DNA from: Escherichia coli
GTDB taxonomy: Bacteria; Pseudomonadota; Gammaproteobacteria; Enterobacterales; Enterobacteriaceae
Length of the DNA: 64,000 bases
Direction: 5' to 3' (one strand)
NCBI RefSeq assembly: GCF_030013205.1
Contig: NZ_CP122648.1
Shown: positions 17,701 through 20,700 of the stretch, piece after piece
How the letters are laid out: every line of letters starts with the position of its first letter
Numbering within the stretch: position 1 is the stretch's first letter
Position numbers: made by a program

Positions 17701-20700
17701 CAAAGACGCGATTCATACTGAAGGCGTCATTGTTGATACCGTCTGGCACTCCAGTCATTCTCATCGCACGGGTAAAAATGGTTCGTGGTATCCCGTCGTT
17801 GCCTTTCGTCCAACGCCAGATTACACGCTAATTTTCAATTCGAGTATTGGCAGCGATTTTTATGAAGACAGCGAAGGCGATAAAGTTAATGTTTATTATT
17901 CTCCAGGACATCCTGAAAAGGCTGAGATAAATAACCCGTGGGTTAATTTTTTTAAATGGGGATTTATCGGCATTATGGGCGTTATTTTTATCTCCGTCGG
18001 TTTATTAATCAGTATGCCCTACTCTAAAAAGACACGCAGGAAACGGAAGTCCCGCCCATGAAAAAAATCATATTATTGCTCAGTTTACTGATACTCCTGC
18101 CTCTGACGGCAACCAGTAATCCATTGATTCCAATAATGAAGACTCTTTTTACAGATGTTACAGGTACTGTACCAGATGCTGAAGAGATCGCGCATAAAGC
18201 CGAGCTTTTTCGCCAACAAACCGGGATTGCGCCGTTTATCGTGGTTGTACCTGGCGTTAATGAAGCAAGCTTCAGGCAAAATGGCAAAGCGATGCTGGCG
18301 CATGCGTCATCTTCATTGAGTGATGTAAAAGGCAGCGTCCTGTTACTTTTTACCACCCGCGAGCCACGGTTAATTATGATAACCAACGGCCAGGTTGAAA
18401 GCGGTCTGGACGATAAACATCTCGGCCTTCTGGTAGAAAATCACACTCAGGCTTATTTACATGCGGACCTCTGGTATCAGGGAATCAATAATGCATTGGC
18501 TGTTTTACAAGCACAGATATTAAAACAACCGACGCCGCCACTGACATATTATCCGCATCCCGGACAACAGCAGGAGAATGATCCTCCCGGCAGTACCACG
18601 ATATTAGGTCTTTTTGCCTGGGCAGTTGCATTCATCGTCTTTACTGCATTTTTTTACTACACGACGCGCCTTAATTATGCATTAAAGTTTGCAGTGGCGA
18701 TGACTATTGCCAATATGGGTTATCAGGCTTTATGCCTGTATATCGATAATAGCTTTGCGATTACCAGAATATCGCCACTCTGGGCAGGACTGATTGGTGT
18801 CTGTACGTTTATTGCCGCGTTGTTATTGACGAGTAAACGGTAAAAGAGGCAGTAAAGTGTGCGTCTATTATGCCGGAGGCGGCGTAAACGCCTTATCCGG
18901 CCCACAAACCCGCAAATTCAATTAATTGCGTCCCCTTGTAGGCCTGATAAGCGTAGCACATCAGGCAATTCTTCCCGCTTTATAAGCCCTTCAGCAACTT
19001 TTCAACAAACTCTGGCACCACCTGGCTTGCCGGGCCGTAATATTTCTCGGCAAATTCATTACCGACCTGGCTTGGTTCAAGATTCAGTTCCACGGTGTGC
19101 GCGCCATGCAGTTTCGCTTCGTGAACAAACCCAGCTGCCGGATAAACATGCCCGGAAGTACCAATGGCAATGAAAATATCGGCCATCGACAACGCCATAT
19201 AAATTTCATCCATGCCGAGTGGCATTTCGCCAAACCAAACGACGTGCGGGCGCAAGGGTGCCGGGAACTGGCAACAATGGCATTTATCTTCTGGCGTAAC
19301 GTCTCCGGTCCAGTCGAGAACCTGACCACTTTGCGAACAGCGAACTTTCAGCAGTTCCCCATGCATATGAATGACATTGGTATTACCTGCGCGTTCATGC
19401 AGGTTGTCGATATTCTGCGTCACCAGCAAAAAGCGATCGCCGAGGGCGTCTTGCAGTTTAGCCAGCGCAAGATGCGCGGCGTTAGGCTGAATTTCTGGCT
19501 GCTGTAGCTGTCGACGACGGGCGTTATAAAACGCTTGCACCAGTTCAGGATCGCGATCGAAACCTTCCGGCGTTGCCACATCTTCAACCCGATGTTCTTC
19601 CCACAGGCCATCTGCGGCGCGAAAGGTACGAATACCTGATTCCGCAGAAATCCCTGCCCCTGTCAGTACGAGTACTCTTGGTTTTTCCATTGCTTCCGGC
19701 ACCACTTTATCTCTGAAAAAAATACGCTGACGCAAACGCTCGCGCAGACGGCGTTTATTTTTACGAAAACGACTTAACCGATGACCCCGACGCGACAGCA
19801 TAGCAACCTCTGTTGTTTAATCGGTTAGATGTAGGAAAGCCGCACCACGCATTCCTCCCGCATCACCGTGGCGCGCGCGTTCAATGCGCGGAACACGAGC
19901 TACAGGTAAGAGATGACGAGGCAGCCTGTCCGCCAGTTGCGTTGTGATTGCCGGGAAATTCGATAAGCCACCACCAATGACGACCAGGTCAGGGTCAACA
20001 ATGGTCAGGATATTTCCCAGACAAACCGCTAATAAATCCAGATAACGCTCAACGTGCGCCCTTGCCTGCTCATCGCCTTGATCATAAAGCGCAATAATTT
20101 CGGGAGCCTGCAACGGTTGATGATAATAGTGTTGATACAGCCATGCAAAACCGCGACCAGACAGATAATTTTCAATGCAGCCATGCTGACCACAGCCGCA
20201 GCGGCGTAACGGGAAATCCAGCCCCATCATGGTTAACGCATCAACCGGCAGACGCATATGGCCAAACTCGCCGGTAATATAGCTTTTACCGGTAATTGGT
20301 TTACCGTTGAAAATCAGCCCGCCGCCAACGCCGGTGCCGAGAATCAACCCCATCACCAGTGGATATTGAGTAAATTCATCATCCCAGGCTTCTGAAAGGG
20401 CAAAACAGTTGGCATCGTTATCAAGGCGGACATCGCGATCAAGACGTACGCTCAGGTCGGCACGCAGCGGTTTACCGCTGGCAGCGGGGACATTGGCAGC
20501 ATACAGCGTACCATCTTCTGTTTCCGGCATTCCCGGAATACCGATGCCGACAGAACCTTTACAGCCAAAACGCTTATCGGCTTCAGCCACCAGCTCGCAC
20601 ACTGCATCTAAAAATGCGTCATAGCTGTCACGCGGTGTCGGCACCCGCTTTTCCCACTGCAACTGCCGACCGCTATCAAACACGCCAAGCGCAATTTTCG

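Follow-up and report, generated by a model that had tools for sequence, protein, structure and literature searches.

The cobB gene within a 64,000-nucleotide (nt) stretch of an Escherichia coli chromosome (RefSeq assembly GCF_030013205.1, contig NZ_CP122648.1; hereafter the window) very probably encodes the known two-isoform Sir2 family deacylase, with one reading frame giving both a long form, CobB-L, and a short form, CobB-S. Among the protein-lysine deacylases of E. coli, CobB is the main one. The two in-frame candidate starts proposed by the original prediction are both present: according to the list of open reading frames (ORFs) and the sequence itself, the long ORF runs on the minus strand from an ATG (ATG1) at 19801 to 18980, stop codon included (273 aa), and a second ATG (ATG2), coding for Met38 and with its A at 19690, opens a 236-aa ORF in the same frame (18980–19690). 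All features given coordinates below likewise lie on the minus strand. The intervening coding region (19691–19801, or +1 to +111 counted from ATG1) specifies a basic N-terminal extension of 37 residues, and equals the interval to which K-12 constructs assign the CobB-S promoter. The Prokaryotic Genome Annotation Pipeline (PGAP) uses the same long start in identical genomes (WP_000952736.1), and the MG1655 RefSeq record carries two coding sequences for b1120, namely cobB (279 aa) and a second, 'CobB-S' (YP_010051180.1), that begins at the internal ATG. Experiments already published for Salmonella and for E. coli K-12 show the two-start arrangement, and the reference annotation of K-12 includes it; the call is correct but ordinary.

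Profile searches leave the identity of the gene clear. The Pfam SIR2 family (PF02146) aligns over its whole profile length with residues 48–221 (E = 4.3e-54), and the NCBIfam equivalog NF001755 reaches 597.9 bits over residues 1–272, where the cut-off is 318, so that the extension is covered as well; the generic CobB models in the NCBIfam search begin to align only at about residue 37–43. Residues G48-A49-G50-I51-S52, H147-G148, C155, C174, C176 and C177 are invariant across 29 species. In sirtuins generally, GAGxS forms the NAD-binding loop, the histidine is catalytic and the cysteines build the zinc ribbon. The solved CobB structures 1S5P and 6RXJ–6RXS match at E ~1e-161 and cover residues 39/40–273, the first residue in every solved E. 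coli CobB structure being 39 or 40, and the AlphaFold2 model places strand β1 at residues 43–47, followed by the GAGIS NAD-binding loop. With the SIR2 domain beginning at residue 48 and β1 at 43–47, Met38 does stand just ahead of the catalytic core, as had been predicted. This core is shared by human SIRT5 and the generic Sir2/CobB deacylases of bacteria and archaea (class III sirtuins), none of which has the Arg-rich N-terminal extension; PDB matches to Sir2Af1/Af2, Sir2Tm and SIRT5 align from about residue 31–42 onwards, and only NF001755 covers the extension.

The extension itself reads exactly as first quoted, and its description as strongly basic is borne out by 12 Arg, 3 Lys and 1 His against 3 acidic residues, which give 15 basic residues, a net charge of +12 and an isoelectric point (pI) of 12.0; the remaining 236-residue core is acidic (pI 5.3). 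AlphaFold2 predicts a single long helix at residues 2–29 with a predicted local distance difference test score (pLDDT) of ~52–68 and a linker at 28–37 with pLDDT <50, preceding a confidently modelled core. To place the extension in its family context, cobB loci were gathered from 80 Enterobacteriaceae species, and a codon alignment of 80 sequences (the window plus 79 loci) was built. The ratio of nonsynonymous to synonymous substitution rates (dN/dS) in this alignment is 0.118 for residues 2–31, 0.154 for residues 2–37, 0.41 for the linker at 32–37 and 0.043 for the core. Because dN/dS in the extension is low (0.12–0.15) and 14 of its residues are invariant, we conclude that the extension is translated and functional across the family.

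What the extension might do had been put as nucleic-acid or membrane association, and the two halves of that suggestion fared differently. Only CobB-L binds polyphosphate (dissociation constant, KD, 48.8 nM) and double-stranded DNA (dsDNA; KD 6.42 µM) in vitro (NAR 2026, PMC12926920), which upholds the nucleic-acid half, and this polyanion binding fits the charge of the extension. The membrane half found no such support: an amphipathic helix serving as membrane anchor was considered and rejected because the maximum hydrophobic moment, 0.78 in an 11-residue window and 0.45 over 18 residues, does not rise above that of same-composition shuffles, 36% and 59% of which, respectively, match it. In Salmonella, the N-terminal domain of CobB drives oligomerisation and Zn2+ binding, and YiaC-dependent N-terminal acetylation decreases CobB-L activity, according to a review.

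Experimental evidence for two isoforms comes from both genera. Citing papers credit the original discovery to Tucker & Escalante-Semerena 2010, who described two Salmonella proteins, CobB_L of 273 aa and CobB_S of 236 aa, together with two transcription start sites. For E. coli, the statement in the original prediction that long and short forms arise from different promoters matches Umehara et al. 2018 (PMC6209979), the first evidence of this kind in the species, obtained with constructs in the K-12 host DH10B that showed both CobB proteins. A cobB fragment with 417 nt of upstream sequence yielded both bands, the ORF alone or with 30 nt upstream yielded CobB-S only, and an ORF beginning at ATG2 yielded no product; these bands place the CobB-L promoter at –417 to –30, inside nagK, and the CobB-S promoter at +1 to +111, inside cobB. 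Native westerns in MG1655 likewise contain both forms, in bands that vary with growth phase, and their authors ascribe the isoforms to 'alternative translation start codons' (NAR 2026, PMC12926920).

To compare this strain with K-12, the window was aligned to MG1655 and all differences were collected. The CobB protein of the window is identical to that of K-12 over residues 1–273, the 22 substitutions within these codons all being synonymous, and the two loci (K-12 b1120; NP_415638.3, YP_010051180.1) also share both ATGs, the Shine-Dalgarno (SD) site and the nagK–cobB spacing. The 528 nt that hold both promoter intervals contain four single-nucleotide polymorphisms (SNPs) relative to K-12, of which three (–343, –199 and –37) fall in –417 to –30 (19831–20218) and one, the synonymous +54, falls in +1 to +111. 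We infer, on what we consider sound grounds, that this strain should be able to make both isoforms as K-12 does, because the protein is the same over residues 1–273 and the promoter intervals are nearly unchanged; the earlier statement to that effect is well supported by this identity. The substitutions are spread unevenly along cobB (18983–19801), with 3 in the first 420 nt and 19 in +429 to +816, a pattern that might mark a recombination tract or else tighter constraint on the nucleotides near the 5′ end. The 2.2-kb stretch around cobB is 100% identical to swine enterotoxigenic E. coli (ETEC) and O139:H1 E. coli chromosomes, in which the gene order is lolE-nagK-cobB with ycfZ convergent and PGAP again takes the long cobB start (WP_000952736.1); genomes at least 99% identical over the same 2.2 kb number 31 of 5,426. 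The upstream gene nagK occupies 19817–20728, ending 15 nt from ATG1 (PGAP annotation of an identical genome).

Both starts are strongly conserved, more so than a chance arrangement would be, and they differ in their ribosome-binding sites. None of the 81 sequences compared (the window and 80 loci) lacks ATG1, which is found in 80/80 of the codon alignment; one locus (L038) seemed to be missing its first 14 codons, but this proved to be an alignment artefact, the full extension being present. At the Met38 column, 75 aligned sequences have ATG, 3 GTG, 1 GTA and 1 ATA, such that 78/80 are start-capable. Yokenella regensburgei (L058), with GTA at this position, has an ATG four codons upstream. An uncultured Klebsiella metagenome-assembled genome (MAG; L064) has ATA and no nearby ATG, GTG or TTG, and may either be without CobB-S or use a rare start codon. 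The SD sequence of ATG1, AGAGG at 19807–19811, lies 5 nt upstream and pairs with the 16S rRNA 3′ end at –6.5 kcal/mol, within the top 5–6% of positions, and –6.5 kcal/mol is also the median anti-SD duplex energy across species. As a separate observation, the mRNA from –30 to +33 around ATG1 (19771–19833) folds at –16.4 kcal/mol in this strain compared with a gene average of –14.0, that is, more stably; across species, structure in the same region is weaker than average (z = +1.41). For E. coli in particular, the stable fold could mean less translation of CobB-L.

The internal start also carries a signature at the nucleotide level. Synonymous constraint within the gene is strongest at codons 29–40 (19682–19717), which straddle ATG2; the majority-codon fraction of this stretch is 0.841 compared with a gene mean of 0.644, ranking first of 240 windows, with a permutation p of ~0.001 that is approximate, the 80 species being phylogenetically related. 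At conserved Arg columns, 20 of 22 use CGN codons, and the rare AGA occurs only at Arg30 (19712–19714; AGA in 68 of the 73 species having Arg there) and Arg42 (19676–19678; 72 of 79), on either side of Met38. In addition, 76/80 species have weaker mRNA structure between –30 and +33 of the internal start than in the gene background (z = +1.45), and in this strain the minimum free energy (MFE) of the ATG2 region is –6.5, compared with a background of –14.0 ± 3.5. Together, the codon, AGA and mRNA-structure patterns show that the nucleotides at the internal start are themselves under selection; this selection fits a functional start or promoter and argues against a proteolytic fragment. A tentative extension of this result, which we think somewhat improbable, is that codons 29–42 harbour a conserved, non-canonical element for initiation through which CobB-S is made. 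One possibility for such an element is a transcription start so close to ATG2, only a few nt before it, that the mRNA would be near-leaderless; alternatively, ribosomes may initiate without an SD site on the A/G-rich, unstructured region.

Our account of the locus draws on two kinds of evidence. The sequences analysed here show the two starts and how well they are conserved, the purifying selection acting on the extension, and the nucleotide constraint at the internal start; the K-12 and Salmonella literature provides the evidence that both proteins are expressed, the promoter intervals and the binding of polyanions; that this strain behaves as K-12 does is what we infer. CobB-L (273 aa) would be translated from ATG1 at 19801 by means of the AGAGG SD sequence. 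Its transcripts would begin farther upstream, with a promoter within nagK as one possible source and the lolCDE-nagK operon, through read-through, as the other. CobB-S (236 aa) would be translated from the in-frame ATG at 19690 on a separate transcript that, going by the K-12 plasmid constructs, would start in the first 111 nt of cobB and hence be without ATG1. Both forms would keep the full Sir2 core, with CobB-L adding the Arg/Lys-rich segment, predicted to be a helix plus flexible linker, that would bind polyphosphate strongly and dsDNA weakly, as seen in vitro.

Promoter scanning speaks to the two transcripts unequally. Within the CobB-L interval of Umehara 2018, the sequence TTTGCA-18-TATCAT (20120–20149; –348 to –319, in nagK) is a candidate sigma-70 promoter with 9/12 matches, and it is the sole match of the scan in 18700–20900. 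It coincides with the BPROM prediction at –347 to –319 in Umehara 2018 (PMC6209979), and the SNP at –343 gives a –35 hexamer of TTTGCA here versus TTTGCG in K-12, one match nearer consensus. The hexamers overlap conserved nagK codons, and their conservation says nothing about promoter function. Farther upstream, a sigma-54 binding motif, GTGGAACGAAAATTGCG, lies in sense orientation at 20690–20706, over nagK codons 7–13. It corresponds to IS12, one of the intragenic sites of Bonocora et al. 2015, who list cobB downstream of it; a single spacer position differs from K-12, and the motif is not part of the –417 fragment, which suffices for CobB-L to be expressed.

Several results weigh against this account, chiefly against its separate CobB-S transcript. 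We detected no sigma-70-like promoter above background in +1 to +111, and no site there reached 8/12 matches in this strain; the rate of promoter-like matches in the first 118 nt of cobB, 0.12, equals the core rate, and the best candidate in the interval is the weak GCGTCA-18-TAAAGT, whose –10 element, TAAAGT at +93 to +98, would leave the message nearly leaderless. Because no sigma-70 consensus is found in +1 to +111, the argument for an internal promoter comes from plasmid constructs and a BPROM prediction only. Moreover, Castano-Cerezo 2011, as cited in PMC6209979, is said to have seen no promoter activity for –400 to +151 of cobB in a reporter study. No SD site better than background was found at ATG2, where the duplex energy is –3.6 kcal/mol (~23rd–28th percentile), and the relatedness of the species compared, noted above, tempers the constraint statistics. 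Lastly, no transcription-start, Ribo-RET or N-terminomics data naming cobB were found in the accessible literature: the accessible material of a Ribo-RET preprint, of a riboproteogenomics study in Salmonella and of the N-terminomics paper on TRAINSPOTTER does not name the gene, and the Salmonella regulatory paper PMC4513076 does not give cobB transcription start positions.

An alternative is that CobB-S arises mainly from internal initiation at Met38 on a long nagK–cobB mRNA, with no dedicated promoter. Precedents exist in infB (the IF2 isoforms), clpB, mcrB and speA, each of which, like cobB, produces from one ORF a full-length and an N-terminally truncated proteoform with related functions. 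The 'alternative translation start codons' of NAR 2026 (PMC12926920), the unstructured ATG2 region both in this strain and across species, the missing sigma-70 consensus and the inactive –400 to +151 fragment, as relayed by PMC6209979, would all be in keeping with such a route. However, the short forms of infB, clpB, mcrB and speA are initiated at an internal ribosome-binding site on the same mRNA, whereas for cobB a separate internal promoter has been reported and the internal SD site is at background level. The promoterless ORF, with or without the 30 upstream nt, gave CobB-S and not CobB-L, and nothing was made once the construct began at ATG2 (PMC6209979). We consider predominant internal initiation rather unlikely, roughly a one-in-four prospect in our judgement, and note that it and a dedicated promoter are not mutually exclusive routes.

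Far less probable is that CobB-L is the sole primary product, with the short form a proteolytic fragment or plasmid artefact and Met38 kept for structure. The weak SD site at ATG2, the want of a recognisable internal promoter and the lack of initiation-site profiling data for cobB in the accessible literature could be read this way, but constructs without a promoter for ATG1 make CobB-S only (PMC6209979), and in native westerns both bands shift with growth phase (PMC12926920). A structural role for Met38 sits poorly with its position outside the ordered core, the crystal structures beginning at residue 39 or 40, and with the observation that 3 of the 5 sequences without ATG at this column carry GTG, still start-capable; the synonymous constraint peak and the conserved AGA codons are likewise unexplained by a purely protein-level role. 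The converse idea, that the annotation reaches too far upstream at ATG1 and that the short form alone has biological relevance, is the least credible and is effectively refuted. It could appeal to generic CobB models and crystal structures, all of them without the extension, and to the catalytic sufficiency of CobB-S alone (PMC6209979), yet it is contradicted by the invariance of ATG1 in 81/81 sequences with a conserved SD site at –6.5 kcal/mol, by the dN/dS of 0.12–0.15 and 14 invariant residues of the extension, and by detection of CobB-L protein with distinct biochemistry (PMC6209979, PMC12926920). The two-isoform account, with a separate CobB-S transcript reported from K-12 constructs, is the one we retain.

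Among the closest known systems are CobB_L and CobB_S of Salmonella enterica, as described in the sources available: the lengths and the 37-residue basic extension agree, there are two transcription start sites, both forms are active, and the N-terminal domain is a target of YiaC acetylation. Unlike the E. coli protein, which it matches at ~90% identity, Salmonella CobB has a Met37-Met38 doublet (PEMMENPRV; loci L027 and L030) in place of Ala37-Met38.

The window departs from K-12 at the opposite end of the gene. The stop-codon region (18980–18986) reads TTATAAAG here and TTAAAAG in K-12, which has one T fewer; with the extra T at 18982, the window has TAA directly after Leu273, whereas loss of that T in K-12 removes the TAA stop and adds six residues (KAGSIA), so that K-12 CobB is 279 aa long. 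The TAA stop is kept both in this strain and in all other Escherichia/Enterobacteriaceae loci examined, which encode 272–276 aa, which makes the 279-aa K-12 reference length a derived state. Among 5,426 complete E. coli genomes, the exact K-12-type 56-mer from the 3′ end occurs in ~1,716 and the window-type 56-mer in 129. This observation and the nucleotide constraint at the internal start are the only items here that are new, and mildly so.

The balance between the two forms matters because the ratio of long to short CobB sets how much of the enzyme polyphosphate or DNA can hold and inhibit during starvation, and it ties the isoforms to DnaA acetylation and replication control. To this picture the window adds no new biology: a swine pathogenic E. 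coli keeps the K-12/Salmonella arrangement unchanged. The analysis is modestly useful in providing comparative evidence for nucleotide-level selection at the internal start, and in showing that the 279-aa length of K-12 CobB is not ancestral but derived, through a frameshift at its stop codon.

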